Assembly: GCA_964394645.1 (NCBI GenBank)
Contig: CAYMYC010000002.1
Coordinates: 28,105 to 92,104 of the forward strand
From: an uncultured Gammaproteobacteria bacterium
GTDB taxonomy: Bacteria; Patescibacteriota; Microgenomatia; Levybacterales; GWA1-39-11
Reading direction: 5' to 3'
DNA: 64,000 nucleotides
The notes under the pieces are model-generated. The model saw only the letters and a program-made list of their open reading frames with translations, searched no databases and was not told the DNA's origin. Positions 1,429 to 36,158 of this stretch are shown in pieces. Within the stretch, counting starts at the first letter, position 1. The number at the start of each line of letters is the position of its first letter. Both the position numbers and the translations under genes were made by a program.

Positions 1429-1572
1429 AACTATCTTCTTATTCATGGTACGGCAAAACATAAGTGCATGTCAAGAAAACACAGCGCTTTTCACGCTACG
1501 CACAGAATACCTTTATTTTGACCTATTTTGATAATCTTGAAAGCATATGTTTCACGTTATACCCTGTATTAT

Positions 1573-2655
1573 ATGGAAAATCACCCAATCCCGCAGGATG
1601 TTACAGGATTTAAATTTAGGCTTATAGGATCTGTTACGGTAAAACAGTTTTTATATCTTTTAGGTGGCGGAGTGTTTGCGCTTTTGTTTTATTTTTTCCC
1701 AATTCCATTTTTGCTAAAACTTCCATTTATGTTTCTTTCAGGAGGTGTAGGGCTTTGTCTTGCGTTTGTGCCTATTGATGGAAGACCTATGGATAAGATG
1801 CTTGTTAACTTCTTTAAGGCAATTCCTGCGGAAAATCAATATATTTACAAAAAACATGGCGCACAAATGCCATATTTCACGTTTACTCCCCGGTCTCACG
1901 CTACCATTACAAGCTCTGCCTCAGAAGACAGCGCAGCCGTACAAAAAGCAAAGCTTTTTAATCAGCTTGCAAGTTCTTATTTTAAGCCTGATCCTGATGA
2001 AAAATCTCAAGTTGAAAACGTGAGCAATCTCTTTAAAGACGGCACAGCTCAACAGGGCGGATTTACGAATAGAGTTATTAAGGCAGATGAAAACGCTCCA
2101 GTAATACCCGCTTCCGCTAGCTTCACTCACCACCAACCGGAAGCAAAAATAGAAGGAATGTCTACTCCCCATGCGAAAGCTCCTGCGCTTCCTGTTCAGG
2201 AGAATAAAAGTCAAATAGTTACCCCACCTGCTGGCTTATCCCAAGTTATTTCTCCTGTGGTGCCCCCAACAACTCCTATTCAATCTGCAACACCACCTCC
2301 AGCAATGCCTCCGCAAGCATCCGTAGGGGGAATAGACATGGCAAACATCTTACAAGGCAAAATACTTGACCCCAGAGGAAAACCGCTACCTCATATCATT
2401 GTGGAAGTGCTTGACACTCAAAACGTTCCACTCCGAACCTTCCGGACTGACGCAAATGGGTTTTTTAGAGCAGCAACTCCACTCCCAAACGGTATGTATA
2501 CACTACATCTGGAGGACACGTTAAAAAAACAAGACTTTCAAGACAAGAGAATAACGCTTGACGGATCCGTAGCTCAACCTATTCAGGTAATATCTGTTGA
2601 TCAACGTGAGAAATTAAGACGCGAGCTATTTGGAGTTGCTCAAAACACTCCATAA
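1573..2655 (+). CDS. PrgI/VirB3-like T4SS membrane protein: an N-terminal TM hairpin, a Pro/Ala/Gln-rich linker and a C-terminal carboxypeptidase-regulatory-like (transthyretin-fold) domain
   Basis: The N-terminus (FKFRLIGSVTVKQFLYLLGGGVFALLFYFFPIPFLL...) matches the charged-then-two-TM pattern of PrgI-family VirB3 analogues. The C-terminal GKPLPHIIVEVLDTQNVPLRTFRTDANGFFRAATPLPNGMYTL resembles CarboxypepD_reg domains. The ORF track starts at a TTG at 1528, and the first ATG is at 1573. Confidence 0.45.
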   Translation: MENHPIPQDVTGFKFRLIGSVTVKQFLYLLGGGVFALLFYFFPIPFLLKLPFMFLSGGVGLCLAFVPIDGRPMDKMLVNFFKAIPAENQYIYKKHGAQMPYFTFTPRSHATITSSASEDSAAVQKAKLFNQLASSYFKPDPDEKSQVENVSNLFKDGTAQQGGFTNRVIKADENAPVIPASASFTHHQPEAKIEGMSTPHAKAPALPVQENKSQIVTPPAGLSQVISPVVPPTTPIQSATPPPAMPPQASVGGIDMANILQGKILDPRGKPLPHIIVEVLDTQNVPLRTFRTDANGFFRAATPLPNGMYTLHLEDTLKKQDFQDKRITLDGSVAQPIQVISVDQREKLRRELFGVAQNTP

Positions 2656-2664
2656 AATCTGCCC

Positions 2665-3279
2665 ATGGCTAAAATTAAATCGAGCACACAATCATTTATT
2701 GAAATCGAAGATATCCGGGATGACACGGTATTTTTGAAAGGGAAAAATGCATGCTCCATTCTGGAGGTATCATCTGTTAATTTTTTTCTTCTTTCCCAAG
2801 ATGAGCAAAACGCCCGCATATATGGGTATATGTCGCTCTTAAATTCCCTCTCTTTTGCTATCCAAATCGTGATAGTTTCAAAAAGGATCGATCTTTCATC
2901 CTATATCTCATCTCTTGATCACAAAATTACCGTCACTCAAAACGCACGAGTTGCTGAACATTTAAGACTTTATAAGGACTTTATCCAAGAGCTTATAAAA
3001 GAAGATGGTTTGCTAGATAAAAAAACATATGTGGTAATCCCGTTTAACGCGTTAGAGTTAGGACCAACATCAGGAGGAGGAAAGAAAGTGTACGAAACAC
3101 GAATTACCGAGGCGATCAAAAGCAAACGAACAAATGTTATGACGCAAATAGAGCGGATTGGTCTTTCCAGTAGAGTTATTAAGGCAGAGGAATTGGGTCG
3201 GGTATTTTTTGAGCTTTTTAACCAAGCGACCATGAACGTGGACTTCTCAACAAGTGACGTAAAAAATATTATTGTGTAA
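2665..3279 (+). CDS. Stand-alone protein resembling the extreme N-terminal domain of long VirB4/TrbE/PrgJ-type ATPases
   Basis: The pattern FIEIEDIRDDTVFLKGKNACSILEVSSVNFFLLSQDEQNARIYGYMSLLNSLSFAIQIVIVSKRIDLSSY follows the CagE/TrbE/VirB4 N-terminal motif: a DG...a..l.g.d...l.s.eeq block, then a loose LnsL...Qi.v.s.r.d pattern. It stops 36 nt before the VirB4 gene, which has its own AAGGAG RBS. Confidence 0.45.
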   Translation: MAKIKSSTQSFIEIEDIRDDTVFLKGKNACSILEVSSVNFFLLSQDEQNARIYGYMSLLNSLSFAIQIVIVSKRIDLSSYISSLDHKITVTQNARVAEHLRLYKDFIQELIKEDGLLDKKTYVVIPFNALELGPTSGGGKKVYETRITEAIKSKRTNVMTQIERIGLSSRVIKAEELGRVFFELFNQATMNVDFSTSDVKNIIV

Positions 3280-3315
3280 ACATATGCTAAAAAAACAAAG
3301 GAGTAATTTTATATC

Positions 3316-5406
3316 ATGCTAGGACTAGGAAAGAAAAAACAAATAGAAAAAGGTGCACCTGCACAAACGACTCAGGCGGCACCACAAAACGCGCAGGCGC
3401 AAACTACACACGAGGTTGAAAAACTGAAGAACGGATCAGTGTCCCTTATAGATCTTCTTGCTCCCTCATCAGTTGAGGTAGATTTTAAATATATACGCGT
3501 AGGAGACGCATTTTACAGAACCTTTATAGTTATTGACTATCCACGTGAAGTTTCTCCCAATTGGCTTTCAATACTCATAGACTACAAGGAGACCATGAAT
3601 GTGTCTATGTTTATATATCCTGTTGAAAGTCGGGATATTCTCTCCAATTTGAAGCGCAAAATTGGAGAAATGGAGGCAACGATTGAATCTGACATGAAAA
3701 ACGGGATAGAACCTGATCCTAAGGTCAGGGCGTCTCTTGAAGACGCGATAGCGCTGCGTGAAGAATTAGCCCGCGGACTTGAACGATTCTTTCAGTTTGG
3801 ACTCTACGTTACGCTTTCCGCAAAAACGGTTGATGAGCTTGATAAAAAAACGAATGAACTTACTTCCCTACTTGCCTCAAACCTACTTGTCATAAAACCT
3901 GCAACACTCCAGATGGAAGACGGCTTTAAAACAACGCTCCCTCTGGGGGAAGATAAATTATTTATCACCCGAAATATGGATACTACATCCGTTGCCTCAA
4001 CGTTCCCCTTCACATCCTATGAAATATCTCAACCAAATGGTATTTTTTATGGAGTAAACACACTGAATAATTCGCTTATCATAGTGGATCGTTTCTCATT
4101 TGAAAACGCAAATTCTGTTGTCTTTGGAAAATCTGGATCTGGAAAATCTTTCCTGGTTAAGCTTGAGGTACTGCGCCAAATGATGTTTGATACAGAAATT
4201 CTCATCATAGACCCTGAAGATGAATATAGAGCCCTCTGCCACGCCCTAGATGGAGAATATATATCCTTCTCAAAGGACTCTGAAGTAAAAATTAACCCGT
4301 TTGCCCTTCTTTCAGATGACAGAACAGAAGCACAGCTTGGAATAAAATTCCTTGCCCTTCACTCACTTCTTAAAATTATGCTTGGTGAATTTTCCCCAAC
4401 ACAGGAAGCGCTTTTGGACCGCGCGCTCGTGTTGTGCTACAAGCAAAAAGGGATAATTCCTGACCCATCAACTTTTGGACGGGAACCTCCTATTCTTGAG
4501 GATCTATATAAAACTCTTCTAAATATGGAAGAGCCAGACGCAAAGGATCTCGCATTTCGGCTAGAAAAATACATCAAGGGAGGGTTTGCAGGACTCTTAA
4601 ACTCACAAACCAATTATGATGTGAAAAATCAGTTAACTATTTTTTCAATAAAACAACTTGAGGAGTCTCTTCGACCCGTAGCCATGCAGGTGATATTAGA
4701 TTTTATCTGGAATAGAGTGAGAACTAAGTTGAAAAAACGCATTTTAATAGTCGATGAGGCATGGTATCTTATGAAAAATCCTGATTCCGCAGCATTTTTA
4801 CAAGGAATTGCAAAACGGGCAAGAAAATACTATTTGGGAGTTACAACGCTTACCCAGGACATTGAAGACTTTTTATCCTCTGATTACGGGAAGGCAATTT
4901 TATCTAATTCTTCAATGCAGATCCTGTTAAAACAAAATTCTTCGGAGGTAGAAACACTTGCCTCAACACTTAACCTATCAGAGGGAGAAAAGCAATTTTT
5001 ACTAACTGCACAGGTTGGAGAGGGACTTTTTTTTGCAGGGCAAAATCACTTAACAGCTCAATTTCTGGCATCAAATTTTGAGTATCAATTGGTCACCTCT
5101 AAACCACAAGACATTTTAGATGAGGCACAAAGAACAAACACGGGAGCGGCAGAACAATTCATAAAAGAAGCAGACGCGCAGGCAAAAGCATCTTCTGAAA
5201 CAATAGCGACCTCTGAAACTCATACCCCTGTTCCACCCCCATCACAACAGCCTGGCGTTCAACCAATAACACAACAGCCCATTTCCCAACCTACTATGCC
5301 GCCGACTAGTCCTGCGGTCCCTACCCCACCGGCAGCTCAAAACCCACAACAAAATACACCAACAGCACAAGCAGAGATTACGCAAACAAAGATAAATAAT
5401 GGATGA
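3316..5406 (+). CDS. virB4: VirB4/TraE-family type IV secretion ATPase (Gram-positive type) with a Pro/Gln-rich low-complexity C-terminal tail
   Basis: Walker A VVFGKSGSGKSF, Walker B RILIVDEAWYLM and GVTTLTQDIEDF are present. The N-terminal block LIDLLAPSSVEVDFKYIRVGDAFYRTFIVIDYPREVSPNWLS is typical of TraE/PrgJ/TcpF-type VirB4. Confidence 0.8.
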   Translation: MLGLGKKKQIEKGAPAQTTQAAPQNAQAQTTHEVEKLKNGSVSLIDLLAPSSVEVDFKYIRVGDAFYRTFIVIDYPREVSPNWLSILIDYKETMNVSMFIYPVESRDILSNLKRKIGEMEATIESDMKNGIEPDPKVRASLEDAIALREELARGLERFFQFGLYVTLSAKTVDELDKKTNELTSLLASNLLVIKPATLQMEDGFKTTLPLGEDKLFITRNMDTTSVASTFPFTSYEISQPNGIFYGVNTLNNSLIIVDRFSFENANSVVFGKSGSGKSFLVKLEVLRQMMFDTEILIIDPEDEYRALCHALDGEYISFSKDSEVKINPFALLSDDRTEAQLGIKFLALHSLLKIMLGEFSPTQEALLDRALVLCYKQKGIIPDPSTFGREPPILEDLYKTLLNMEEPDAKDLAFRLEKYIKGGFAGLLNSQTNYDVKNQLTIFSIKQLEESLRPVAMQVILDFIWNRVRTKLKKRILIVDEAWYLMKNPDSAAFLQGIAKRARKYYLGVTTLTQDIEDFLSSDYGKAILSNSSMQILLKQNSSEVETLASTLNLSEGEKQFLLTAQVGEGLFFAGQNHLTAQFLASNFEYQLVTSKPQDILDEAQRTNTGAAEQFIKEADAQAKASSETIATSETHTPVPPPSQQPGVQPITQQPISQPTMPPTSPAVPTPPAAQNPQQNTPTAQAEITQTKINNG

Positions 5407-5424
5407 ATATTGTAAAACTATCAT

Positions 5425-8016
5425 ATGGCAAATAATTCTGGCACATACACCACTTCTGAGGATCAGATAAAAAATATTGAATCCTCAATAACACAACTGG
5501 TAAATGATCAGAAGGGTCTGGAAGAATTAGTTACAAATGGCACCATTTCACAGGAAGAAGGGGACACAAGAAAAGTTGAAATACGCAAAAAAATAAATAT
5601 TCTTCAAAACGAAAAGGCTGAAGCCGCAAGTGATCTTACTTTAAACCCAAACACTACTACAGAAAAAGCTAAGGAAGTAAACGACCAGGAAAACACGAAC
5701 GATCACAAAAAAGAGGAGCACAAAAGTACACACTCCACAGAGCACAGCCTTCATTTGGCACATAATAAATCTACCAGTAAAAACGAGAGTGAACCTTCAC
5801 TAGTAGACAGCGCATCTTCCGATGTACCGTCGGACCCATCAGAAAATAAAGAAAGAGGAATGGGTAAAAGCTCATCTATATCCTTTGAGAAGGATAGCTC
5901 ATTCAGGGTAAACGAAAACCGAAACTATGAAGATCAAATAGATAAAACGGCTCAAGCTATTGAAAACACTACAAAGCAGGAAACGCCTCCGTCAACACCT
6001 ACACCTTCTGAAGCAAAGCCGGAAGAATATCAGACAAATTCCCCACAAAAAATTGTACCCTCTCAGGAAGCTTCTACAAACGGTGCGCCTACAGCTACTG
6101 TTTCACAAACGACTTCCCCTATAGAACAATCAGATCAAAACATTCCTTCGCAGGAATCTATAAAAGAGTCATCCCCACACAAACCTACGACACCCCAAAA
6201 AGCTCCTTCTAAAACAAAACAGATAGTTAAAACTGCTGCGAAAAAGGGGGCAAAGGGATATGTGGATATATATAAATACACCCCACTAGGTTTTCTGCTA
6301 GGAAGACTAAGCCCACGCTTAAAAGAATGGGAATTTGGCAAAAAAATTGCGACAAGGATTTCAGAAAAAAGACCCAAAAATAAAGAAAAGCCTGAAGGTA
6401 ACGATGAAAAAAACACCCAACCTGAACCTAAAAAAATACAAAAAAAATCAAAAACACTAACCGCTACTAAAAAGGCGACCTCAATAACGCTTACCTGGTA
6501 CAAAAACGTGTATAAAAATTCGCCTCTTGGAATTTTATATAACAATACTAAGCACTTAATTCCCCCCTCTATTACTGCAGGAATTAAAAAAATATTACCC
6601 CGAAAAAAAATTCCTCCAAGTAAACCTCCTGCTGAGATAGGAAAACCAAAAACAGCAAAGGATTACCAAAGAATAGGAATCAATAGAATATTAACAAAGG
6701 CGATTGCGAATGGGTTTGACAGATTTGAACTTCTAAGAAAAGTTAGAGATGCAAAAGTTTGGCAAAGCAAAGCATGGAAATACGGAAGATATGCAGTTTC
6801 CCCTCTTGGAGCCACAGGCTACGCACTCTATAAACGTCGGAGGGAACAAAGACAAAAACAGGAGGAAAAAACCAATCCATCTTCTCATCAGTCACATATG
6901 CAACCAAGAGTGCTTAGAAGTGGGATACAGAACAGAAGCTCCTTTCCTGCAATGTCAAACCTGAATAAGCACCTAGGAAGAAGTTTAAGAAACAAAAGCG
7001 CGCAAAAAGCACTCTCTGCTGCAGGTAAAAAAGGAGGGCAACAAATCGCAAAAAAAGCGCTAAGTCAAATCACTCTGACTTTTCTTAAAACACCTGCTGG
7101 ATGGGTAACTGTTGGAGTTTCCTGTGTAATTTTACTCTTCATTGTGTTTGTAATGACAGTTATCACAATAGCATCTGATAGCTCAAGTGGTTCCGCACTG
7201 GGTGGCGGGGCAGGAGACGTAGGAGGTGGGGGACAGCCACCAACACAAAACCCCATCCCAAACTTTACGCTACAAAAAACAGTTTCACAAACCGAATTAG
7301 CTGAGATGGGCGAAATTACCTACACCATTTCCTATTCCTTTACTTCTGGCTCAACCGTTAAAAAGGAAGATATTATTATTTTTGATCAAATTCCAGAAAA
7401 CACAAAATTGGTTGATAATAAAACTTCGGGGAATTATACACTTGATACAACAGACCGCACCCTATCATGGAATCTTTCAGATTCAGGAAACGCCGCCGCA
7501 TCAACATTCTCCTTTACTGTTCTTCCTGTAAAAACTGATATAAACGTGGTAAACTCCGCGTGGGCACAGGCAAACGCATCTACCGCAGGACCAGGAGGAG
7601 CGCAATCACCAAATGCATGTACGAGACCCACAGAAGGAACAGGATATTGTTCATATGAACATCTCCTCCCTTATTTTAATAACCAACCCGACCTAGCACT
7701 AACCGCCTCACTGATTTGCAACCTTGAGAGCGGAAGCGATCCTTTTGCCACCAATAAGGTATGTCCAGATTACAGCATAGGACTGTTCCAGATCAATCTA
7801 ATTGCTCACTGTGGAGAAGCGTTTGATCCTCCACCAACCTGTACGGTCCTTAATTCTTCGCTTAGAAACGCGTGCGAACAGAGATTTCTGGATCCTTTAG
7901 AAAACATCCGGTATGCATATCAGCTTTATTTAAGCGGAGGAACTGGTTGGACCGCAAACAAGTGGTCCACATACCCTGCAGCAAAAAGCATTTTAGATTC
8001 CTGTGGTAATATATAG
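5425..8016 (+). CDS. Large membrane-anchored cell-wall hydrolase. It has an approximately 550-aa basic/disordered cytoplasmic N-terminal region, one TM helix, a DUF11-like beta-domain and a C-terminal SLT lytic transglycosylase domain (VirB1-like).
   Basis: The C-terminus (ESGSDPFATNKVCPDYSIGLFQIN ... YAYQLY) matches the family-1 lytic transglycosylase catalytic E-S ... G-L-(M/F)-Q-I motif. The TM helix is WVTVGVSCVILLFIVFVMTVITIA. The N-terminal half is coiled-coil and K/E/S/T/P-rich. Confidence 0.6.
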   Translation: MANNSGTYTTSEDQIKNIESSITQLVNDQKGLEELVTNGTISQEEGDTRKVEIRKKINILQNEKAEAASDLTLNPNTTTEKAKEVNDQENTNDHKKEEHKSTHSTEHSLHLAHNKSTSKNESEPSLVDSASSDVPSDPSENKERGMGKSSSISFEKDSSFRVNENRNYEDQIDKTAQAIENTTKQETPPSTPTPSEAKPEEYQTNSPQKIVPSQEASTNGAPTATVSQTTSPIEQSDQNIPSQESIKESSPHKPTTPQKAPSKTKQIVKTAAKKGAKGYVDIYKYTPLGFLLGRLSPRLKEWEFGKKIATRISEKRPKNKEKPEGNDEKNTQPEPKKIQKKSKTLTATKKATSITLTWYKNVYKNSPLGILYNNTKHLIPPSITAGIKKILPRKKIPPSKPPAEIGKPKTAKDYQRIGINRILTKAIANGFDRFELLRKVRDAKVWQSKAWKYGRYAVSPLGATGYALYKRRREQRQKQEEKTNPSSHQSHMQPRVLRSGIQNRSSFPAMSNLNKHLGRSLRNKSAQKALSAAGKKGGQQIAKKALSQITLTFLKTPAGWVTVGVSCVILLFIVFVMTVITIASDSSSGSALGGGAGDVGGGGQPPTQNPIPNFTLQKTVSQTELAEMGEITYTISYSFTSGSTVKKEDIIIFDQIPENTKLVDNKTSGNYTLDTTDRTLSWNLSDSGNAAASTFSFTVLPVKTDINVVNSAWAQANASTAGPGGAQSPNACTRPTEGTGYCSYEHLLPYFNNQPDLALTASLICNLESGSDPFATNKVCPDYSIGLFQINLIAHCGEAFDPPPTCTVLNSSLRNACEQRFLDPLENIRYAYQLYLSGGTGWTANKWSTYPAAKSILDSCGNI

Positions 8017-8018
8017 CT

Positions 8019-8486
8019 ATGAATAAAGTAAGAATAGTAATTTTTTCTGTATTAGTTACAATCATTGTTATTGTGTCAACAATTATCTTCCTTTTGTCAT
8101 CCGCACCACAAAAAACCACCCCACAAGAACTGATTGTCCCTACAAAAATCCCACCAGTCCTTTCAACAACTGATAAAATTATAATATCCGGAATTCCTAT
8201 TAAAAATCCCTACATTTCCCCGGTCCAACTAGATACACAGGGAGATTCACTCATGACGAGCACCGAGACATATAATCTTGTCTACCTAAAGCCGTTTAAT
8301 GAATTTCTTATATCAATAACCGGTGCTCCATTTGAAGTAAATAGACAACTTGCGGAAAAGGCTTTTCTTGAAAGGGTTGGCATAACACAGGAACAAGCTT
8401 GCCAAATAAAGGTAACTATTACTACTCCTGCCTCCGTCAACCCGACAGAAGCAGGTCAAAAGTATCCATTAAGTTTTTGTCCTTAG
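8019..8486 (+). CDS. Small single-pass membrane protein of the T4SS-like block
   Basis: The N-terminal TM helix is VRIVIFSVLVTIIVIVSTIIFLL. It is tightly coupled to flanking genes with 2-3 nt spacers. Confidence 0.4.
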   Translation: MNKVRIVIFSVLVTIIVIVSTIIFLLSSAPQKTTPQELIVPTKIPPVLSTTDKIIISGIPIKNPYISPVQLDTQGDSLMTSTETYNLVYLKPFNEFLISITGAPFEVNRQLAEKAFLERVGITQEQACQIKVTITTPASVNPTEAGQKYPLSFCP

Positions 8487-8489
8487 CCT

Positions 8490-9134
8490 ATGAAAAAATT
8501 ATTATTCATTTCAGCCATGCTAATTCTTGCCCCTATCTCACAAAGTGCTTTTGCCCAATTTAGAACTGATAGTAACACAGTTGCAACAAAGGTGGGAAAT
8601 CCCTCCAGTGTCAGTTCTAGCATAGGAGCTGTTGCGTCAGAACTGGCTAGTGTTGTAAGCGCTGCCTGTGAGGGCGCTGTTACTAGCAAAAACATTTCCT
8701 GCATGCAGGGCTTGTCTTTACCAAATATTCCGCATAAGCACCTGGCGATAAATGAGATAGTTAGATCTGCGACAGCAAATTATTGCGATGACAATAAAAA
8801 ATCTCTAGGAACGTGTCTACAGTGTGTGGGGTTTGTACAGGGAGCAGTAGGTGGCGCTCTAGGCGCATATTTAAACAATGGAGGGAACGCAAAGGATTTT
8901 GCAACAAATGTTCCATCAGGCTATCAATACATACAAGCTTCAAGTGGAACACTAGTTGCGGAAGGTGATATTATAATAAAAACTGGTGGCGGTTTTGGAC
9001 ATATCGCGGTTGTTACAAAAGTTTACGATTCAAGCTTAATACAAGTAGCTGAGGCTAATTTTAATTACGGAGGACAGATAGGACTTAACAACACTGCTCT
9101 TTCTTTATGGAATGGATGGTTGAGGAAACAATGA
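8490..9134 (+). CDS. Secreted CHAP-domain peptidoglycan hydrolase (amidase/endopeptidase)
   Basis: The signal peptide is MKKLLFISAMLILAPISQSAFA. The CHAP signature has a Cys in CLQCVGFVQGAVGGALGAY and a His in GGGFGHIAVVTKVYD. Confidence 0.65.
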   Translation: MKKLLFISAMLILAPISQSAFAQFRTDSNTVATKVGNPSSVSSSIGAVASELASVVSAACEGAVTSKNISCMQGLSLPNIPHKHLAINEIVRSATANYCDDNKKSLGTCLQCVGFVQGAVGGALGAYLNNGGNAKDFATNVPSGYQYIQASSGTLVAEGDIIIKTGGGFGHIAVVTKVYDSSLIQVAEANFNYGGQIGLNNTALSLWNGWLRKQ

Positions 9135-9832
9135 ATACACGAAAACTACTTTTTATAGGAATTAGTATAACAGCGGTTATTATCATACTGTTTTTGTTTT
9201 TAATCTTCTCCTTTAAGGGAAACTCTCCTGTAACAAACCTGCCCACCCCTTCCATAGGGGTGACAGGAGTAACAACTCCAAGTGTCTTGGGATTTCAACT
9301 AACTTCAAGCACTCCTCAAAACAAAGCAGTGGGTGTACAACTAAACACTCCAATATCTTTTTTGTTTAATAAAGAGGTAGGAAATGCAACCGCAACCATA
9401 ACACCAACCACTAATATTTCTACTACCTTTTCCGGAAGAGCTGTTATCATTAAGCCCAGTACAAATCTTTCACCCTCCACACAGTATGTAGTAGTTCTTG
9501 AGGTAAATTCTCAATCCTTCTTTTTAACTTTTACAACCCAGGGACCTACTCCCACCATAGGACAAAACACGAGACCCATTGACCAGGTAGATACGGAACA
9601 AGAAATTCTCAAACAAACCCATCCCGATGTATTCTTATCTAACTACACGCCCCATACTAGTAGTACCATTTCTATTACTAGCGCATACATCTCAGGTAAT
9701 CCAGGGCACTTCCAATTTACTGTTTCTTCGAGGGGAAATGCAGTGTCTGCAACTGCTGAGTTTCAATCTTGGGCACAGCAAAAAGGATTAAATAACTCCC
9801 AGGTGGCATCACTCGACGTTGTCTACAAATAA
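9131..9832 (+). CDS. Membrane-anchored Ig-like (Big/SbsA-like) domain protein
   Basis: There is an ATGA start/stop overlap with the CHAP gene. The N-terminal TM helix is followed by a beta-rich Ig-like region (VGVQLNTPISFLFNKEVGNATATITPTTN...YVVVLEV). Confidence 0.4.
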   Translation: MNTRKLLFIGISITAVIIILFLFLIFSFKGNSPVTNLPTPSIGVTGVTTPSVLGFQLTSSTPQNKAVGVQLNTPISFLFNKEVGNATATITPTTNISTTFSGRAVIIKPSTNLSPSTQYVVVLEVNSQSFFLTFTTQGPTPTIGQNTRPIDQVDTEQEILKQTHPDVFLSNYTPHTSSTISITSAYISGNPGHFQFTVSSRGNAVSATAEFQSWAQQKGLNNSQVASLDVVYK

Positions 9833-9834
9833 AC

Positions 9835-10935
9835 CTACTCCTGAACGCGGACTGGCATAATAACGTGGAAAAAGTCCGGATCATCATCTGTTGTAAAAAG
9901 CGCAGGCTCAAATGGACTATTTATTTGAAGTGTTATTGTTTTTCCTTCTACGGCACGCAGAAAATCAAGTAAAAATTTGACGTTAAACGCAATGTGATTA
10001 TCATCTCCTACTTGTTCACCGTCAATTTTTGATTCTGCTTCTCCCAAACTTGAGGAGTCAACCTGTAGATGAAGTGCTCCTAGCGCAATGTTGCAGTTTA
10101 TAATGTTTGCGTTTTCTCGGGCAAAAACGGATGTTACCTTCAACAATCGTAATAATTCTTCCCTATCGAGTCTTATACTGGTCTTAAGCTCCTTCGGAAT
10201 AACTTTTTCATAATCAGGGTATTGCCCTTCAATCAGTCTCCCAACCAGCAGCGCTCCTCCTGATTCCAAAATCGCCTGGTTCCCTGTTTTATGAATATAT
10301 AAAAAAATGTTTTGCCCCTTAAGACTTAGACCTTCACTTATCAGTCTTTCCGAAACAATCATTCCCTCAGCCATCTGCGTAACGCCGGTGTCCTTTACTC
10401 TTTTTAGTGAAAGCCTATATCCATCAGTTGCAACATAATCAATGCTTCCTTCTTTTTTAACCACATAAATCCCCGTCAGGTGCGGGCGAGATTCGTCTTG
10501 GGACACTGCAAAAATGAGCTTGCTGAAGACGTTTTTAAATTGAGAGTAGGTATATTCCCCCACTTTATCCCCTTTTTCTTCATATAGTCTTGGGAACTCA
10601 TCACGAGGCAGTGCTTGAAACTTAAATGACCCGCTTCCCGCGGTTAAAACCACTTGATCCTTCTGCTGTTTTATCTTCGCCTTCTCATGTGTGAGAGAGG
10701 AAAGTATTTCAACAAACTGCCGACCTGGAACGAGTACTCCTCCGACCCCCTCTATCTTAGAGGGAATACTTATGCGCACACCAAACTCCAAGTCTGTTGC
10801 TGATAGTGCAAATTCCGATGTTGTAGTCTCCAGAAGAACACTGGATAATATGGGTATCTGTGAATGGGCTGGAACGATCTTTCCTAAAAGAGATAAATAC
10901 TCCGTTATGTTTTCAGTTAAAAAATCTACTTCCAT
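9835..10935 (-). CDS. dnaN: DNA polymerase III beta sliding clamp
   Basis: It is 366 aa, the N-terminus is MEVDFLT...ILSSVLLE...LSATDLEF, and the three-domain length and position downstream of dnaA fit. Confidence 0.9.
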   Translation of the reverse strand: MEVDFLTENITEYLSLLGKIVPAHSQIPILSSVLLETTTSEFALSATDLEFGVRISIPSKIEGVGGVLVPGRQFVEILSSLTHEKAKIKQQKDQVVLTAGSGSFKFQALPRDEFPRLYEEKGDKVGEYTYSQFKNVFSKLIFAVSQDESRPHLTGIYVVKKEGSIDYVATDGYRLSLKRVKDTGVTQMAEGMIVSERLISEGLSLKGQNIFLYIHKTGNQAILESGGALLVGRLIEGQYPDYEKVIPKELKTSIRLDREELLRLLKVTSVFARENANIINCNIALGALHLQVDSSSLGEAESKIDGEQVGDDNHIAFNVKFLLDFLRAVEGKTITLQINSPFEPALFTTDDDPDFFHVIMPVRVQE

Positions 10936-11113
10936 AATATGTTTTTAAATAGTAGTAGCAGTAGTATAGTAGGACAAGTGTAAAAAAGCAAACAGACGTG
11001 CGTAAGAAAATGTGGATAACTTATGGATTACTTTGTGCACAGAATGTTTATATCTTAGAAAAACGTTTTTTGTTATAGTTATCCCCCACCTTTTTCCCAT
11101 CCGACACCACCAC
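10936..11113. promoter_or_regulatory. dnaA-dnaN intergenic oriC-like region with DnaA boxes
   Basis: A perfect TGTGGATAA (reverse complement of TTATCCACA) lies at 11011..11019. An adjacent TTATGGATTA sits at 11021..11030 and TTATCCCCCA at 11079..11088. AT-rich stretches and a TAGTAG-type microrepeat lie at 10950..10973. Confidence 0.5.
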
Positions 11114-12436
11114 TTATCCCGCAAGTAGCTTTCTTAAATGCATTACTTCTTCTTTGAGGCGATCTTCGCGGGTCATTCCTTCCGCCATTTTATCCACACC
11201 GTGCATAACGGTTGTATGGTCCCGCCCGCCCAACAAATTTCCAATCTCTTTAAATGAAAGCCGCAAGTCTTGTTTTAATAGATACATGCAGATTTGTCTT
11301 GGTTTAACGAATATTGCGTCTCTTCGGTCTCCCTTGAGTTGAGTCGACTTAATATTGTAAAAGTTGCACACTGCGTCAACAACCGTGTCTGGATGGAGAA
11401 ATTTTTCTTTCTCCTGTTTTTCTCCTAGCAAGCGAAATACATCAGACCTTGTAATAGGTCCTGATTTTGCTATCTCTACGGTTGCGAGCTTTAATAAAAA
11501 CCCTTCAAGCGCCCGAGTGTTTTCTATTCTTTCGGCAATCATTTTTGCAAGCTCAGGGTCTAGTTCATTTCCTCTCTTCCTACTTTTAAGCATAAGGATT
11601 GCGGTTCTTAACTCAAAATCAGGGGGTTGTATGTCTACCGTTAGTCCCCCTTCAAACCGCGATGCAAGTCTGGCTTCTATTTTTTTTATTTCAGAAGGGG
11701 GTCTGTCTGAGGAGAAAACAATTTGTCCCCCCCCATCAATAAGTGCGTTAAAGGTGTGGAACAATTCTTCTTGGACCTTTTCTTTTCCCGCCAGAAATTG
11801 AATATCGTCAAGAAGCAGAAGATTTGTGTGTCTAAATTTTTTCCGAATATTTTGCGTTGACTTATTCATAATAGCCTCGACCACTTCATTTGTGAACTCT
11901 TCGGTTGTGAGGTATAAGATGTGTGCTTGTGGGTTTTTTTCAAGAACAGTGTTTGCTATAGCATGCATAAGATGCGTTTTTCCAACACCTACATCTCCGT
12001 AGATAAAGAGAGGGTTATATTTTTTCCCAGGGTTTTCAGCTACTGTCATTGATGCAGTGTAGGCAAGTTGGTTTGAGTCAGAAACAGCAAGGGATGAGAA
12101 TTGGTATTCTTTTTTTATCCTTGGGTTGACTACTCTTTCTAGCTCTGGTTGTCTGATTGTGAAAAGTGGACCCTCATCTTTTTTTATCAGGTTTTTAGCT
12201 TTCGTATATGTGAAGATAATACTTGTGCTTGCTCCTGCTCTTTTATCAAAAATAGATTTTATGAGAGGTAAGTATTTCTTTTCAAGTTGGTCAGCTATTA
12301 TGAAAGTGGGAACAGAAATTGTTGCGACATTGTTTTCAAACGAAACAAGCTCTGTATGTTTGAAGAATGTTAAAAACGTTCCTTTAGATACATCAATTTG
12401 TATTTCAGAAAGAATTTGTGTCCATAAGTCATCCAT
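11114..12436 (-). CDS. dnaA: Chromosomal replication initiator DnaA
   Basis: Walker A GDVGVGKTHLMHAIAN, the AAA+ box and the C-terminal DNA-binding helix (DHTTVMH) are present. The ORF track start at 12454 is a TTG, and the first ATG at 12436 gives MDDLW. Confidence 0.9.
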   Translation of the reverse strand: MDDLWTQILSEIQIDVSKGTFLTFFKHTELVSFENNVATISVPTFIIADQLEKKYLPLIKSIFDKRAGASTSIIFTYTKAKNLIKKDEGPLFTIRQPELERVVNPRIKKEYQFSSLAVSDSNQLAYTASMTVAENPGKKYNPLFIYGDVGVGKTHLMHAIANTVLEKNPQAHILYLTTEEFTNEVVEAIMNKSTQNIRKKFRHTNLLLLDDIQFLAGKEKVQEELFHTFNALIDGGGQIVFSSDRPPSEIKKIEARLASRFEGGLTVDIQPPDFELRTAILMLKSRKRGNELDPELAKMIAERIENTRALEGFLLKLATVEIAKSGPITRSDVFRLLGEKQEKEKFLHPDTVVDAVCNFYNIKSTQLKGDRRDAIFVKPRQICMYLLKQDLRLSFKEIGNLLGGRDHTTVMHGVDKMAEGMTREDRLKEEVMHLRKLLAG

Positions 12437-12472
12437 ATTTATATAAGGCAACAAGAGTTAAAAGTATAGTTA

Positions 12473-12481
12473 TGTGGATAA
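12473..12481. promoter_or_regulatory. Consensus DnaA box (TGTGGATAA) 37 nt upstream of the dnaA start. It probably marks the autoregulatory, upstream half of a bipartite origin.
   Basis: Exact 9-mer seen in the sequence. Confidence 0.5.
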
Positions 12482-30167: not shown

Positions 30168-30332
30168 TTTTTGAATTAAGAGCGTGTAGATCCCATTTAT
30201 GGGATAACGAGGAGAAGGTCTTTTGCCAACGACGGTAAAAGAGATCGGACCCCACTCACATAAAAAGTGAGGGGAGGATTTGCGGAAACCTTCAGGTTGT
30301 AATGCCAACCTAAAGAATTTTTTAACACTCTT
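30168..30332 (+). ncRNA. Candidate glmS (GlcN6P-responsive) ribozyme in the 5' leader of glmS
   Basis: It lies on the plus strand about 100-260 nt upstream of glmS. An AG-CG(U)G cleavage-site-like start at about 30181 is followed by a P1 hairpin GAUCCCA-UUU-UGGGAUA. The highly conserved core ACGAGGAG, then GG..CGG..GAUCGGACC and a CCCCACUCAC/GUGAGGGG hairpin resemble the P2/P2.1 and P3 regions of Firmicute glmS ribozymes. It was not checked with a covariance model. Confidence 0.4.
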
Positions 30333-30432
30333 TAGTAATAAGGAGAATAAAGAAAAATTTATGCACTACTCGTCTCACTTCCCCAAGGTATTTTTTTTAT
30401 AAATAGCCTTTGTTTTTTTCAATTATTTTTAT

Positions 30433-32199
30433 ATGTGTGGAATATTAGGTTATATTGGACCAAAAAAGAACGCTGCAAATATAGTACTTGATGGTTTAAA
30501 AACTCTTGAATATAGAGGGTATGATTCATGGGGTGTTGCAGTAAACGGTGAAGAAAAAATAGCCATAGAGAAGCATGTAGGAAAGATCGGTGGAGCCTCT
30601 ACTACATTATCCGAAAGTTTCTTGGGAATTGGGCATACCCGATGGGCAACTCACGGCGGAGTTACTGTGGAAAATGCTCACCCTCACTTAGACTGCAATC
30701 ACAGAATTGCCTTAGTTCACAATGGAATCGTTGAGAATTACAAAGAGCTAAAGGAAGGTTTAATGAAGCGAAAACATGTCTTTGTTTCAGGGACAGACAC
30801 AGAAGTAATAGTGCATTTAATTGAGGAGGAATTAAAAAAAGATGATAATCTTTCCCATGCAGTATTTTCTGTATTTCAAAAGCTTCATGGACTTTCAGCA
30901 GTGGTTGTAATGGATCATAAGACACACGCGCTCGTTGTTGCAAAAAACGGATCACCCCTGGTTATTGGAGTTGGAAAAGCTGAATATTTTGTAGCTTCTG
31001 ATATGTCAGCAATTCTTCCTCACACAAAAAATATGATTTTTCTTGAAGATCATATGCTTGCTACCCTTTCAGATTCTATAGAGATTTTGTCATTGAAAAC
31101 CGGTAAAAAAGAAAAACCAAATATACAGGAAATTAATTGGCAGCAGGAATCAGCGCATCTTGGAGAATTTAAGCATTTTATGGTTAAGGAAATTGCTGAA
31201 CAGCCGATTGTTATTGAGCATTTAGCAAATGAGTGTTTACCTGAAATAAAAAAGCTATCAAATGTTGTGAAAAGTGCTCATGGAACATTCTTTATTGCGG
31301 CAGGAACAGCATATCATGCATGCTTATCCGGTATTTATCTTTTTTCAAGAATTGCAAAAATTCATGTGAACTCTGCTATTGCTTCAGAGTTTAATTATGT
31401 TGAAGATTTTTTGAAGAAAAAAAGTTTGGTTATGGCGTTTTCACAAAGTGGTGAAACTATAGATGTTGTTGAACCTTTAACACGAGCACAAGAAAAGGGT
31501 GCAACAATTGCGGCTGTTGTCAACGTTATAGGCTCAACCATTTACAGAATGGCGGATTATAAAATGTTGTTAGGCGCAGGTCCTGAGAAGGCTGTTGCGT
31601 CAACCAAGGCATATATCGCAAAACTTACTACCCTTTTACTGTTAGCATACTCCCTGGACAACAAGACACAGGAGATCCTTCCGTATGTGCACATGGCTGC
31701 AGATGAGATTAGGAGTATGCTGGACAAGAAAAAACTGCAAAAAATAAAACGTTTGGCAGGAAGTCTTGCAAGCACGCAAAGCATGTTTATTATTGGGCGT
31801 GGAATGTCTTACCCAAGTGCTCTTGAAGCAGCTTTAAAAATAAAAGAAGTAACTTATATTCATACTGAAGGGCTTGCTGGGGGAGAGTTAAAACATGGAA
31901 CAATAGCACTTATTCAAAAAGGAACTCCATGTATAGTTTTTGCGCCACTGGATGAGACATATGAGGCAATAATTTCAAATGCTATTGAAATACGGTCCCG
32001 TGGGGCACGAATTATTGGTATAAGTCCTAAGAACTCTGATGCATTTGATGACTTTATAGAAGTTAAGGATTTAAAAGACGCGACTATCCTTACGCAAATT
32101 GTGCCAGTCCAACTGTTATCCTATTACATTGCTCTTGCAAAAGGGATAACTGATCCAGACAAGCCAAGAAACCTTGCAAAGTCCGTTACCGTAAAGTAA
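30433..32199 (+). CDS. glmS: Glutamine--fructose-6-phosphate aminotransferase (isomerising)
   Basis: The N-terminal MCGILGY (Cys1 nucleophile) and two SIS domains are present, in 588 aa. Confidence 0.9.
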   Translation: MCGILGYIGPKKNAANIVLDGLKTLEYRGYDSWGVAVNGEEKIAIEKHVGKIGGASTTLSESFLGIGHTRWATHGGVTVENAHPHLDCNHRIALVHNGIVENYKELKEGLMKRKHVFVSGTDTEVIVHLIEEELKKDDNLSHAVFSVFQKLHGLSAVVVMDHKTHALVVAKNGSPLVIGVGKAEYFVASDMSAILPHTKNMIFLEDHMLATLSDSIEILSLKTGKKEKPNIQEINWQQESAHLGEFKHFMVKEIAEQPIVIEHLANECLPEIKKLSNVVKSAHGTFFIAAGTAYHACLSGIYLFSRIAKIHVNSAIASEFNYVEDFLKKKSLVMAFSQSGETIDVVEPLTRAQEKGATIAAVVNVIGSTIYRMADYKMLLGAGPEKAVASTKAYIAKLTTLLLLAYSLDNKTQEILPYVHMAADEIRSMLDKKKLQKIKRLAGSLASTQSMFIIGRGMSYPSALEAALKIKEVTYIHTEGLAGGELKHGTIALIQKGTPCIVFAPLDETYEAIISNAIEIRSRGARIIGISPKNSDAFDDFIEVKDLKDATILTQIVPVQLLSYYIALAKGITDPDKPRNLAKSVTVK

Positions 32200-32203
32200 G
32201 TAT

Positions 32204-34039
32204 CTAGTCTACCTTCCAGATTTCAGCATTTGCGTTTTGATATATCCTTTTTAGCCCCAAGTCTTGAGGTAAATATGGGAGCGATTCAATATAATCCTCA
32301 TATTTTGAAAGATAAATATATCTGATATTTTTTTTCTTCAGGATACTTTTTGCATTTATACTTGAGCGCGCGAGTAAAAACGATATATCAATCTGAACAG
32401 GCTTATTAGTAAATAGACTAATATAAGATTTCTTACCGGCAGCTGCAGCAGGCTTATATTGGCTCGTAAATGCGCATTTAATGCAGTCTCTATCAAAAGA
32501 GAGCACATTACCCATTTTTTGCTTTTTTAGTACTTGTAGCGCGTCATACTCTGATTGACTGATATAAAATGATTGAGGGACTATAAACGGAATGTTTCCA
32601 GAAAGAAACGGAAAGCGCCTTTTTATGGTAAAGGGAAAAGCAATAGATGCATCTTTGAATACCATACCGTTTTCGGGCACAGAATATTTTTTGCCGAAGG
32701 TAAATGTTTTAGTTGGTAAGGTTACAGAATTATCTCTGAATTCTACAGTTCCCTTTTCAAATACTAATGATTTGTTTGTTACCTTCAATAGTTCACCAAA
32801 ATTATAGTTTTCTTGAGTTCCTGGGTTAATTTCTGTATCTATTAAAAAAGGGAGCGTTATAGGTAGATTATTTTGCATATTTTTTTCACTATAAAATGGT
32901 TCTTTAAAGTTTGAGTAGTATTCCCTCAGGTCAATTATTTGTAGCCTCTTTGTTTTTGAGTCATATAAAAAGCCAATTCTATAATATGGTGTTTGCATCC
33001 AGATAGACTGAGCAGTAGTCTTTTCTAAAAGATCATGAGAATAAACAAGATGATTCGGAGAAATGGAAGGGAATGACACACGATACCACTTTGAAAACTC
33101 CGCCATGGTAAGAGGTTTTGTATTATTTGTTTGCGCGAATTGCTTTATCATATCTAGTTGTACTGCATAGTTAGTTTTATATGTTAAAGGATCTAAGTCT
33201 CCTTCAAGCCCCACCGTTATATGTCCAAATGAGTTTCTATATTGAGGAAGAGCAAACGTAGACAGCAGCTTTTCAAAATAGGAAGAGTTTATCTTTAGCG
33301 TTGAGTAGTCTTGCACGCTATACATGCTTGCCGCGTTGTGGCTTGGGCTGTGATACCCATAAATCGGGTCACGCGCCGCCCACCGTAAAGATACTATATC
33401 CAATTTTTCGCTTTTATTTTTTGCAGGTATAGCAGCATGTGTTTTATTAGGATAGTATGGTACTGACCACCAAGTTCCCCATACTGTGTAGTGGTCAAGG
33501 TCATATTGGTCTGAAACTCCAAGTACGCTTACAATGTTATATTTTTTCTTCATGTATTCGAGTGAATAGGAATCAACCCACCATGCTCCTACAGAAACTG
33601 GGTAATAGCCGAAGTTATCCTTAAAGGTATTAAAGACCGTATCTATCAGTTTCTTCCGGTCGTTTTGTGTGTATCCTGATAGAAATATTGAAGTAGCATA
33701 ATGCCATGATGAAGTGTTGTTATAGGCTACATTTGCCTTTTTTGAAAGTTCAGGAGTTACTTCCAAAAATATGCCGATTTCCTGATCGTGATTTAAGCTT
33801 TTTAATTCCTTCACGAAGTCGTTTTTAGTAAGAACGTTATACGTTACAAGCCAAGTAGCGGGTAAATTTCTGGATTCTACCTCATGCTTTTCCGCCTGAA
33901 AACTCGCAAGATAACTCTTTGTGTAGGAAGAGATTCTTAGTGGGTTAACAATAGTGATAAATGAGTTCTCACTTGCAAAAATTTGTGAGGGGAATAGGAG
34001 AAAAGCAACAAAAAAAAGACAGATGAGTAATTTATGCAT
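32204..34039 (-). CDS. Large secreted hypothetical protein (signal peptide, aromatic-rich, possibly carbohydrate-active)
   Basis: The signal peptide is MHKLLICLFFVAFLLFPSQIFA, and many W/Y-rich segments follow. The function was not recognised. Confidence 0.45.
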   Translation of the reverse strand: MHKLLICLFFVAFLLFPSQIFASENSFITIVNPLRISSYTKSYLASFQAEKHEVESRNLPATWLVTYNVLTKNDFVKELKSLNHDQEIGIFLEVTPELSKKANVAYNNTSSWHYATSIFLSGYTQNDRKKLIDTVFNTFKDNFGYYPVSVGAWWVDSYSLEYMKKKYNIVSVLGVSDQYDLDHYTVWGTWWSVPYYPNKTHAAIPAKNKSEKLDIVSLRWAARDPIYGYHSPSHNAASMYSVQDYSTLKINSSYFEKLLSTFALPQYRNSFGHITVGLEGDLDPLTYKTNYAVQLDMIKQFAQTNNTKPLTMAEFSKWYRVSFPSISPNHLVYSHDLLEKTTAQSIWMQTPYYRIGFLYDSKTKRLQIIDLREYYSNFKEPFYSEKNMQNNLPITLPFLIDTEINPGTQENYNFGELLKVTNKSLVFEKGTVEFRDNSVTLPTKTFTFGKKYSVPENGMVFKDASIAFPFTIKRRFPFLSGNIPFIVPQSFYISQSEYDALQVLKKQKMGNVLSFDRDCIKCAFTSQYKPAAAAGKKSYISLFTNKPVQIDISFLLARSSINAKSILKKKNIRYIYLSKYEDYIESLPYLPQDLGLKRIYQNANAEIWKVD

Positions 34040-36158
34040 ATGTACTTGGCCAAGGAGAAATAATAAGCATTTTGTTCTCAAGTTTTAATTCCTGATTTAT
34101 TTTTTCAGTAATAAATGGCATAAATGGATGGAGTAGAAGCAGGAGGTTTGTATAGAGTAAAATTAGTATGGAATAAGAGTCGTTGTCAATTCTGTTTTTA
34201 ACATCCTCTATATAAATATCTGCAAACTCATGCCAAATAAATTCATACAGTCTTTCCGCTGCTAAATTAAACTGATAGGAGTCAAGATATTTTGTAATTT
34301 CCAAATTTAAATTATTTACCTTTGTAACCCACTCTTGGTCTATTGTATTTTTAGCTTTTACGTTTGAAGTAGTTATTTTCATTTGTGATTTGCTTTCAGT
34401 GATTTTATCTTTTTGCATCTCTATAAAGCGTCCAATATTCCAAATTTTATTGGCAAATTTTCTTGCGGCTTCAAGCTTTGGATATGAAAGGGCTTGATCA
34501 TTTCCGGTTGCGTTTCCATAGATTAGAGCGAAGCGCACTGCGTCAGCACCATATTCATCCACCAATTCAAGTGGGTTGATAACATTTCCCCGGCTTTTAC
34601 TCATTTTTTTCCCATAGGGATCATTTACTATTCCATGGAATAAAACCCTTTTAAAGGGGATATCGTCTGTTATATAAAGTCCAAGCATGACCATTCTGGT
34701 TACCCAGGCTTTTAAGATGTCATACGCTGTTTCCATAACATCTGTAGGATAAAATTTATCAAAGTCGCCTGTCTTCCCAGTATTTAAAGTTAAATAAGGC
34801 CATTGTCCTGAGGAGAACCATGTATCAAAAGTATCTGGGTCCTGAGCTAGCTTTAAAGACTTACACTCATGGCACTGTTTGGGGATTTCACCCTCTGTTA
34901 TAACCCAAGCATCACAATCACTACATTTCCACGCAGGGATTCGTATTCCCCATGCTATTTGTCTGCTTATATTCCAATCGTGTAGATTATCTAACCATTG
35001 AAAGTAGATTGCCTCAAAATTTTTAGGGGTTATCGCAATTTTGCCTGTTTTAACAACAGCTATTGCGTTATCCGCAAGTGTTTTTACTTTTATAAACCAT
35101 TGTTCTCGTGGAAGAGGTTCAAGCTCATGCTTGCATTTATAGCAAGTTTTTCTAATTGTTGTATATGTCCGCTCTCCTTTTAGCAGGTTTTTCTTACGTA
35201 ATAACTGAAGCGTTTTTTCGCGTGCAGGTTTAACAAAAAGCCCGTCTACAAGTCCTGTATTTATCATCTTACCGTCAAAGCCAACCACTTGAACTCCTGT
35301 TAGTTGGTGTCTTATTGCGACTTCCCAATCATCAAAATTTTGCATAGGTGTAACTTTTACAGCTCCAGTACCAAACTCTTTATTTACAAAATTATCTTCA
35401 ATGATGGGAATTTCCCGGTTCGTTAGTGGGAGTAGTACGTTTTTCCCAATAAAATGTGAGTACCTTGTATCAGTTGGGTTTACCATAACTGCTACATCAC
35501 CAAATAACGTTTCTGGTCTACTTGTTGCAACAACAATCTCTCCTCCTCCATCAATTGGGTAAGAAATCTCATAGAGTAATCCTTGGGTCTCTTCAGTAAC
35601 TACCTCAAGATCTGAAAAGGAAGTTCCATCAAATGTACAATAGTTAACTAATTTGTACCCTCTATATATAAGATTATCATTATGCATTCGATGAAACGTT
35701 TTATAGACAAGTTTAATAATTTCTGGATCAAGTGTATATTTTTCTCTTGACCAATCAAGAGAAAACCCAAGTCTTTTTAGTTGTTTTTGAATTCCTCCCC
35801 TATTCTGCTCAACATATTCATGAATCATTGAATAAAGCGTTGTTTGGTCAAAATCTAGTCTGCTCCTTCCTTCTTCTTTCAATTTTTTCTCAAAAACAAA
35901 TTGAGTTTCTATTCCTGCGTGGTCTGTTCCTGGAAGCCATAGTGCTGCGTATCCTTTCATGCGATGGTATCTAATTAAAATATCCTCAACGGTAAACATG
36001 GCATGACCAAAATGAAGAGCGCCATTTGCGTTTGGAGGAGGGAGAATTATTGAATATGGTTTGCCATTTGGATGTACCTCAGGTTTAAAATAACCGTTAT
36101 CTTCCCATGATGCGTATATTTTCTCCTCTGAACCTATGTGGTTGTATGCTTTATCCAT
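34032..36158 (-). CDS. valS: Valine--tRNA ligase, a short form lacking the C-terminal coiled-coil
   Basis: HIGH region PNANGALHFGHA and KMSKS are present. At 708 aa it is shorter than the roughly 880 aa typical of ValS. Confidence 0.9.
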   Translation of the reverse strand: MDKAYNHIGSEEKIYASWEDNGYFKPEVHPNGKPYSIILPPPNANGALHFGHAMFTVEDILIRYHRMKGYAALWLPGTDHAGIETQFVFEKKLKEEGRSRLDFDQTTLYSMIHEYVEQNRGGIQKQLKRLGFSLDWSREKYTLDPEIIKLVYKTFHRMHNDNLIYRGYKLVNYCTFDGTSFSDLEVVTEETQGLLYEISYPIDGGGEIVVATSRPETLFGDVAVMVNPTDTRYSHFIGKNVLLPLTNREIPIIEDNFVNKEFGTGAVKVTPMQNFDDWEVAIRHQLTGVQVVGFDGKMINTGLVDGLFVKPAREKTLQLLRKKNLLKGERTYTTIRKTCYKCKHELEPLPREQWFIKVKTLADNAIAVVKTGKIAITPKNFEAIYFQWLDNLHDWNISRQIAWGIRIPAWKCSDCDAWVITEGEIPKQCHECKSLKLAQDPDTFDTWFSSGQWPYLTLNTGKTGDFDKFYPTDVMETAYDILKAWVTRMVMLGLYITDDIPFKRVLFHGIVNDPYGKKMSKSRGNVINPLELVDEYGADAVRFALIYGNATGNDQALSYPKLEAARKFANKIWNIGRFIEMQKDKITESKSQMKITTSNVKAKNTIDQEWVTKVNNLNLEITKYLDSYQFNLAAERLYEFIWHEFADIYIEDVKNRIDNDSYSILILLYTNLLLLLHPFMPFITEKINQELKLENKMLIISPWPSTYA

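Follow-up and report, generated by a model that had tools for sequence, protein, structure and literature searches.

In this article, we discuss a pair of adjoining genes in a 64-kb stretch of contig CAYMYC010000002.1 (GenBank assembly GCA_964394645.1), hereafter the window, in which VirB4, the ATPase of type IV secretion systems (T4SS), appears as two polypeptides rather than one. The window is a piece of Candidatus Levybacteria (Patescibacteria/candidate phyla radiation) chromosome with a conjugation-derived T4SS adjoining dnaN and dnaA, and the pair itself, two open reading frames (ORFs) that we call ORF A and ORF B, is laid out as follows:

2665..3279, plus strand: ORF A, a TrsD-like protein of 204 amino acids (aa) with an ATG start, which supplies, as a detached piece, the initial ~190 residues of the VirB4 N-terminal domain
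3280..3315, plus strand: intergenic spacer of 36 nucleotides (nt), read from the sequence, with AAGGAG and a second in-frame TAA inside it
3316..5406, plus strand: ORF B, a VirB4-family ATPase of 696 aa, with NCBIfam and Pfam matches and 55% identity to residues 213-770 of the fused relative P0143 (see below)

An earlier reading of the DNA letters, made without database searches (the sequence-only reading), had proposed that VirB4 is split here, with its extreme N-terminal domain encoded upstream of a TraE-like ATPase. Its coordinates, stop codon, 36-nt spacer and AAGGAG are all borne out by the ORF list and the raw sequence, and every motif that it quoted can be located in the translations. 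ORF A ends with TAA at 3277-3279 in both the ORF list and the raw sequence, AAGGAG occupies 3298-3303, 12 nt 5' of the ORF B ATG at 3316, and the two ORFs share one frame with an additional in-frame TAA at 3304-3306 between them. The motif ILEVSSVNFFLLSQDEQNARIYGYMSLLNSLSFAIQIVIVSKRID is found in the ORF A translation and LIDLLAPSSVEVDFKYIRVGDAFYRTFIVIDYPREVSPNWLS in that of ORF B, which also carries Walker A (GKSGSGKS) and Walker B (ILIVDEAW).

On these sequence matches ORF B reads as a short VirB4 of the TraE/TrsE type whose ATPase motifs are intact. It scores 424.7 bits against the NCBIfam model NF045971 (conju_CD1110; cut-off 325), covering model positions 171-731 of 752, spans positions 281-892 of 894 in the Mbov_0397 VirB4 model (VirB4_plasma), starts at position 240 of 792 in TIGR00929, and has Pfam matches to P-loop_TraG (E 1e-36) and AAA_10 (E 1.5e-17). 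A complete VirB4 N-terminal domain is absent from the polypeptide, the first ~170-280 model positions being missing. The protein also bears a K/Q/A-rich low-complexity N-terminal extension (residues 1-45, window 3316..3450) and a C-terminal tail rich in P/Q/T (residues ~605 to 696, window ~5130..5403); both vary in length among relatives and are absent from fused Patescibacteria and Firmicutes VirB4s. We also considered ORF B as a component of a defence system and rejected the idea, PADLOC giving only generic similarity to HerA/FtsK-type ATPases.

What ORF B lacks, ORF A provides. In the NCBIfam scan ORF A matches positions 100-276 of the 894 in VirB4_plasma (E 6.5e-11), so that, with ORF B on 281-892, the pair tiles a single VirB4 model with a gap of four positions. 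A second match, to the TrsD/TraD model NF041427 (positions 15-200 of 201, E 2.9e-6), reaches 27.2 bits, where the curated cut-off is 200 and the pSK41 and pRE25 proteins TrsD and TraD score 227.6 and 104.7, respectively; ORF A is thus best described as a remote TrsD/TraD homologue and no formal member of that subfamily model. When an ORF A profile built from a 22-sequence alignment was compared by hhalign, it matched residues 10-175 of the fused 754-aa VirB4 of Carboxydocella pCCELLA01 with 98.5% probability and residues 19-198 of the fused 831-aa VirB4 of a B. mycoides plasmid with 96.7% probability, and pSK41 TrsD was matched over 165 columns with 78% probability (E 1.8e-5). By these profile comparisons ORF A is closer to the N-termini of fused VirB4s than to TrsD/TraD, and the TrsD model itself matches residues 18-199 of the fused B. 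mycoides VirB4. The link to TraD is based on the NCBIfam TrsD/TraD model and not on hhalign. The profile alignment of 2665..3279 therefore met the VirB4 N-terminal region in both NCBIfam and hhalign, and not an unrelated family.

The predicted fold of ORF A points the same way, the VirB4 protein TrwK of plasmid R388 being its sole fold-search match; the fold tool gives no aligned TrwK residues, and the assignment to the N-terminal domain rests on the sequence-profile coordinates. A phmmer search of ORF A against the Protein Data Bank sequences returned no matches. With profiles and fold both indicating homology to the N-terminal part of single-chain VirB4, ORF A is the detached extreme N-terminal module of VirB4, a protein of the TrsD/TraD type. 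Its C-terminal peptide VDFxxxD[VI]KNII[VLI] (residues 187-204, window 3223..3276) is nearly invariant in relatives, with a predicted local distance difference test score (pLDDT) below 50, and may be a docking motif. We rejected the notion, suggested by its placement in a MAFFT alignment, that this tail duplicates the first strand of the ORF B core: a scan with a position-specific scoring matrix ranks the site sixth with a negative score, and 74 of 500 shuffles score equally well.

A scan of species-representative genomes gave 43 related loci (44 where a count adds the window), and the split is shared by all 43, which have an ORF A-like gene, a stop and then an ORF B-like gene. Across the window and these loci the ORF A stop is TAA in 33, TGA in 6 and TAG in 5, and the relative reading frames of the pair are distributed 19/14/11. 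In an alignment of the junction DNA the ORF A C-terminus and the ORF B start (ATG YTA GGA) are conserved; the spacers between them range over 1-39 nt, with length differences not divisible by three. The corresponding ORF B start peptide, M[LF]G..KKK, lies 1-39 nt 3' of the ORF A stop in 26 of the 44 loci (median 3.5 nt). Both genes are under purifying selection, with ratios of nonsynonymous to synonymous substitution rates (dN/dS) of 0.026-0.038 for ORF A and 0.04-0.06 for ORF B in the closest pairs. The best 120 ORF A homologues all stand alone, at 193-227 aa, and those with a source name come from Candidatus Levybacteria or Patescibacteria. ORF A is one of a class of free-standing proteins, encoded 36 nt 5' of a short VirB4 ATPase here and likewise directly 5' of one in the 43 relatives, pSK41 and pRE25.

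Fused relatives exist, and we looked for them with an exhaustive ORF A profile search that returned 2,588 representative clusters at E <=0.001, of which the best 150 were inspected. P0143 is the sole full-length fusion identified among those 150, a 787-aa protein from a Patescibacteria metagenome-assembled genome (MAG) that occurs at full length on several independent assemblies. Encoded at 6001..8364 of locus L050, it has the gene order of the window around it, namely PrgI, VirB4, a large envelope protein and a small one, with dnaN and dnaA following in the opposite orientation. ORF A residues 4-188 align to residues 6-201 of P0143 (40% identity, E 6e-44) and ORF B residues 48-603 to residues 213-770 (55% identity), leaving just 11 residues of P0143 between the two alignments. 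The other long ORF A relatives (374-715 aa) are not fusions: each is a TrsD-like domain extended by a long low-complexity tail rich in Q/P/N/S. In P0256, P0217, P0188, P0150 and P0130 these C-terminal tails run to 150-500 residues, and three of the five close with similar PPIxEI peptides. In Levybacteria, ORF A has no such tail and represents the minimal form. Split and fused VirB4s are both present on other Firmicutes plasmids as well, and C. botulinum pCBH offers a split example with proteins of 257 aa (4803..5576) and 620 aa (5566..7428), an 11-nt overlap and prgI upstream.

The pair sits in a compact cluster that ends at the replication genes, and the features around it are:

1528..2655, plus strand: PrgI/VirB3-like membrane protein (Pfam PrgI PF12666, 32.4 bits against a cut-off of 27, residues 20-98)
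5425..8016, plus strand: 863-aa protein in a TrsF/TrsG-like position (SLT_3 near the C-terminus, E 1.7e-3, below cut-off)
8019..8486, plus strand: small 155-aa protein with a hydrophobic N-terminus judged from the sequence and no family match in the scans
8490..9134, plus strand: 214-aa CHAP-domain peptidoglycan hydrolase, a VirB1-type function (Pfam CHAP, E 1.5e-9, 38.7 bits against a cut-off of 26)
9107..9832, plus strand: bacterial Ig-like protein (Pfam Big_5, E 7.5e-9), the last gene before dnaN
9835..10935, minus strand: dnaN, assigned by reading the translation
11114..12454, minus strand: dnaA, assigned by reading the translation

A PrgI family protein (1528..2655) and a CHAP hydrolase (8490..9134) thus both lie close to ORF B. 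The PrgI-like gene, whose true start is probably the ATG at 1573, also precedes the pair in the relatives L006 and L050. Its product, at 360-375 aa, consists of a PrgI domain, a proline-rich linker and a carboxypeptidase-regulatory-like domain (CarboxypepD_reg, residues 275-329, within a long C-terminal extension), and this layout suggests an extracellular location for the portion after the PrgI domain; PrgI of pCF10 has 117 residues (PMC12857230). In L050 the equivalent of the 863-aa protein is an 890-aa Peptidase_M23 protein, and the positions of dnaN and dnaA are taken by DNA_pol3_beta and Bac_DnaA Pfam matches. The weak lysozyme-like match of the 863-aa protein and the CHAP domain sit in two separate window proteins. 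In TraG, TrsG and PrgK of Gram-positive plasmids the lysozyme-like and CHAP activities are combined in one protein.

Perfect DnaA boxes (TTATCCACA) occur three times in the 64-kb window, at 11011, 11190 and 12473 (span 11011-12481), and those with one mismatch are not enriched over shuffles; the boxes around dnaA likely mark a replication origin adjoining the T4SS cluster. Elsewhere the window carries housekeeping genes, among them those for FtsH, a class I aminoacyl-tRNA synthetase, two penicillin-binding proteins, MurD, a P-type ATPase and a ComM-like protein. No VirB2-like pilin genes lie inside the window, at whose left edge the cluster is placed, and the closest relative (L006) has three T4SS_pilin genes ~2.5-4 kb upstream of its PrgI-like gene. 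Searches by tblastn with the pSK41 and pRE25 coupling proteins and relaxases gave no match better than E 0.3 in the window. Further afield, a glmS ribozyme lies at 30170..30370 on the plus strand (Rfam RF00234, 57.1 bits against a gathering score of 37), upstream of a 588-aa ORF (30433..32199), and Pfam gives no match at E 1e-5 for the large ORFs at 32204..34081 (minus strand, 625 aa) and 37263..38828 (plus strand, 521 aa). Many MAG records with the Levybacteria-type locus (L007-L044) are titled 'uncultured Gammaproteobacteria bacterium', apparently a mislabelled taxonomy.

We consider it very probable that this pair makes up a two-polypeptide VirB4 motor, ORF A contributing the first ~190 residues of the N-terminal domain and ORF B the remainder of that domain together with the P-loop ATPase domain, in a non-covalent, VirB4-equivalent protomer. 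The grounds from this analysis are homology, collinearity, conservation, purifying selection and synteny. The two genes would be co-transcribed and tightly coupled, and from the short spacers one would expect translation to be coupled and the two proteins to be made in near-equal amounts, presumably at a stoichiometry of roughly 1:1, after which the products would most likely assemble non-covalently into the protomer. VirB4 N-terminal domains join two protomers per dimer, are embedded in the membrane and make contacts with both VirB3 and VirB8 (PMC12857230, citing the cryo-electron microscopy [cryo-EM] of R388), and given these roles in solved T4SS structures ORF A may serve to anchor the ATPase to adjacent protomers and to the PrgI/VirB3-like protein, whose gene lies immediately 5' of ORF A.

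Several observations weigh against this two-polypeptide motor, for which the physical assembly of ORF A with ORF B, their stoichiometry and the contact with VirB3 are inferred. ORF A stays far below the NF041427 cut-off, its hhalign match to the single pRE25 TraD sequence is not significant, and hmmscan gave zero Pfam matches even at E 10 for it and three homologues; PF26593 (TraC-like), which had no match in our hmmscan, is the precomputed annotation on nearly all of the best 120 ORF A homologues, including one that is 93% identical. The fold-search E-values are modest (~1e-3) and the structure model is of moderate confidence (pLDDT 66, predicted template modelling score 0.57). ORF A also evolves faster than ORF B (median identity 56% vs 73%, median dN 0.36 vs 0.22), and many close relatives carry disordered Q/P/N/S-rich tails of 100-500 residues on the TrsD domain, which would fit a partly independent role. 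These last two points, together with the predicted disorder of the invariant C-terminal peptide, are what would be expected if ORF A were an accessory factor (an adaptor, assembly chaperone or regulator) that descends from the VirB4 N-terminus and is not a stoichiometric piece of the protomer. We regard such a factor as rather improbable, since a fused form with identical synteny is known (P0143), the pair is adjacent with very short spacers in every one of the 43 loci, and ORF B alone lacks the model positions that ORF A provides.

The remaining explanations are weaker. A full-length VirB4 could be made by stop-codon readthrough or programmed frameshifting, the split being merely apparent, and it is true that the ORFs share a frame in the window and that a single stop plus one codon is all that separates same-frame ORFs in several relatives (L010, L033, L038 and L044). 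Against this stand the two in-frame TAA codons at 3277 and 3304, frames that are distributed as by random placement, the use of all three stop codons, and ORF B's own conserved ATG and N-terminal peptide, with AAGGAG upstream in the window, so that we rate readthrough or frameshifting as very unlikely. A sequencing or assembly error at the stop, or recent pseudogenisation of a virB4 that is normally fused, might be entertained because fused VirB4s predominate across bacteria and one fused lineage is known in Patescibacteria, but all 43 independent genomes carry the split at this one position with differing stops and frames, the best 120 homologues all stand alone and both ORFs are under strong purifying selection, which leaves this explanation with a chance close to nil. 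The shared split, the varied stops and frames, the conserved ORF B start and the low dN/dS exclude sequencing error, pseudogenisation and conserved readthrough or frameshifting in practice. They also uphold the sequence-only reading, which had called a sequencing frameshift unlikely, and the orthologous loci are far from being fused in all relatives. Finally, the cluster might belong to an integrated conjugative element rather than being a chromosomal, housekeeping-like T4SS, as its closest curated models are VirB4s of conjugative elements (the CD1110 and Mbov_0397 ICE families). This seems extremely unlikely to us given that the tblastn searches with pSK41 and pRE25 coupling proteins and relaxases did no better than E 0.3 in the window, that the VirB4 and the 863-aa protein of the cluster match no coupling-protein or relaxase family at cut-offs, that the nine Pfam-scanned ORFs outside the cluster, among the 12 in the window of at least 500 aa (a tenth was not scanned), are housekeeping or unassigned, and that the position beside dnaN and dnaA is conserved across relatives, in agreement with the published survey (PMC12102498).

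A broader idea grows out of the same material. The faster evolution of ORF A relative to the ATPase, the long disordered tails and the conserved terminal peptide would fit a history in which the virB4 gene underwent repeated fission at one domain boundary (in Patescibacteria, on plasmids of the pGO1/pIP501 type and on those of C. botulinum), freeing a TrsD-like module to serve as an adaptor that tunes the assembly or partner recruitment of an essential T4SS. We offer this as a speculation that is probably wrong. In a neighbour-joining tree of the ATPase cores most deep nodes have 22-45% bootstrap, so one fission versus several is undecidable from it, and its sole supported deep grouping unites the Patescibacteria with the split pCBH ATPase (100% bootstrap) on very few taxa. 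If the idea were true, the rare fused lineage of P0143 would be its natural control.

The two-gene VirB4 brings little that is new: a 2025 publication already covers the architecture and how it is distributed in Patescibacteria, and TrsD/TrsE, the plasmid prototype, has stood in annotations for decades. For annotation, ORF A should be labelled TrsD-like (VirB4 N-terminal module) and not hypothetical, and the pair should not be treated as a broken gene. Structural work on T4SSs would find here, as a separate polypeptide, the piece of VirB4 that would contact VirB3 and pair protomers, and the naturally fused relative with identical synteny makes fusion/split complementation easy to design. The module appears to be under-recognised in the field: in its section 'The translocon' the 2025 nomenclature review places traC of pIP501 immediately adjacent to traE and skips traD (PMC12857230).

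The closest comparison is with the T4SSs of Patescibacteria surveyed by Quinonero-Coronel et al. (2025, Microb Genom, PMC12102498), who described TrsD as a remote homologue of the VirB4 N-terminus. TrsD outnumbers every other T4SS component that they found in the phylum, with 2,272 homologues, 1,664 of which lie beside VirB4, and for Ca. Southlakia epibionticum ML1 a TrsD homologue is essential (as cited in PMC12102498). For the homology of TrsD and VirB4 that paper cites Guglielmini et al. (2014; PMC4027160), whose main text makes no mention of TrsD. The survey places the T4SS near dnaA/dnaN in Microgenomatia and Paceibacteria and finds relaxases mostly absent (PMC12102498), and the window agrees in phylum, in the gene pair, in its dnaN/dnaA neighbours and in that no similarity to a relaxase or coupling protein was found in it. 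ORF A would belong to the TrsD of that survey (the CONJScan/MacSyFinder MPF_FATA profile), judging by the paper's description and the close Levybacteria and Patescibacteria relatives. Nothing essential differs, the one contrast being that the PrgI-like gene of the window adjoins the pair whereas VirB3 homologues adjoin virB4 in only 22.6% of Microgenomatia (PMC12102498). The window is therefore one more Levybacteria (Microgenomatia) instance of the published TrsD plus VirB4 system, which is already known.

The plasmids extend the comparison beyond the phylum. On pSK41 a TrsD of 227 aa is encoded directly 5' of a TrsE of 672 aa, and on pRE25 (pIP501-type) a 209-aa protein in the TraD position directly precedes a 653-aa TraE, the ATPases starting at model positions 265 and 294, respectively, compared with 281 for ORF B. 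Both pSK41/pGO1 and pIP501/pRE25 (MPF_FATA, pGO1 subclass) share the order VirB3-like protein, TrsD, VirB4, membrane protein and CHAP/lysozyme hydrolase; they differ in serving plasmid conjugation and in having both relaxase and coupling protein, and their sequence similarity to ORF A is remote. The sequence-only reading was right that ORF B resembles the shorter TraE of pIP501 and overlooked that TraD/TrsD, just upstream of TraE/TrsE, is the same N-terminal module. TraD of the pELF plasmid paper, which we also took up as a comparator, is a VirD4 homologue and hence irrelevant. The resemblance of the pair to a single-chain VirB4, claimed from the letters, is confirmed by the monoderm examples (CD1110 of CTn2, Mbov_0397, pCCELLA01, the B. 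mycoides plasmid and P0143), with which ORF A plus ORF B is collinear with ~4-11 residues missing at the junction; these differ in being one polypeptide and in lacking the low-complexity N- and C-terminal extensions of ORF B. More distant again is TrwK/VirB4 of R388 (cryo-EM structures 7O42, 7O43, 7O41, 8RTB and 8RTD), a diderm, single-chain protein with ~12-14% sequence identity. The suggestion that a stably split VirB4 would be unusual does not survive these comparisons, TrsD-TrsE of pSK41 and TraD-TraE of pRE25 having the same layout and the Patescibacteria pair having been published (PMC12102498): the split pair is real, and the arrangement of TrsD followed by VirB4 is the norm in Patescibacteria and in pSK41/pGO1-type plasmids.

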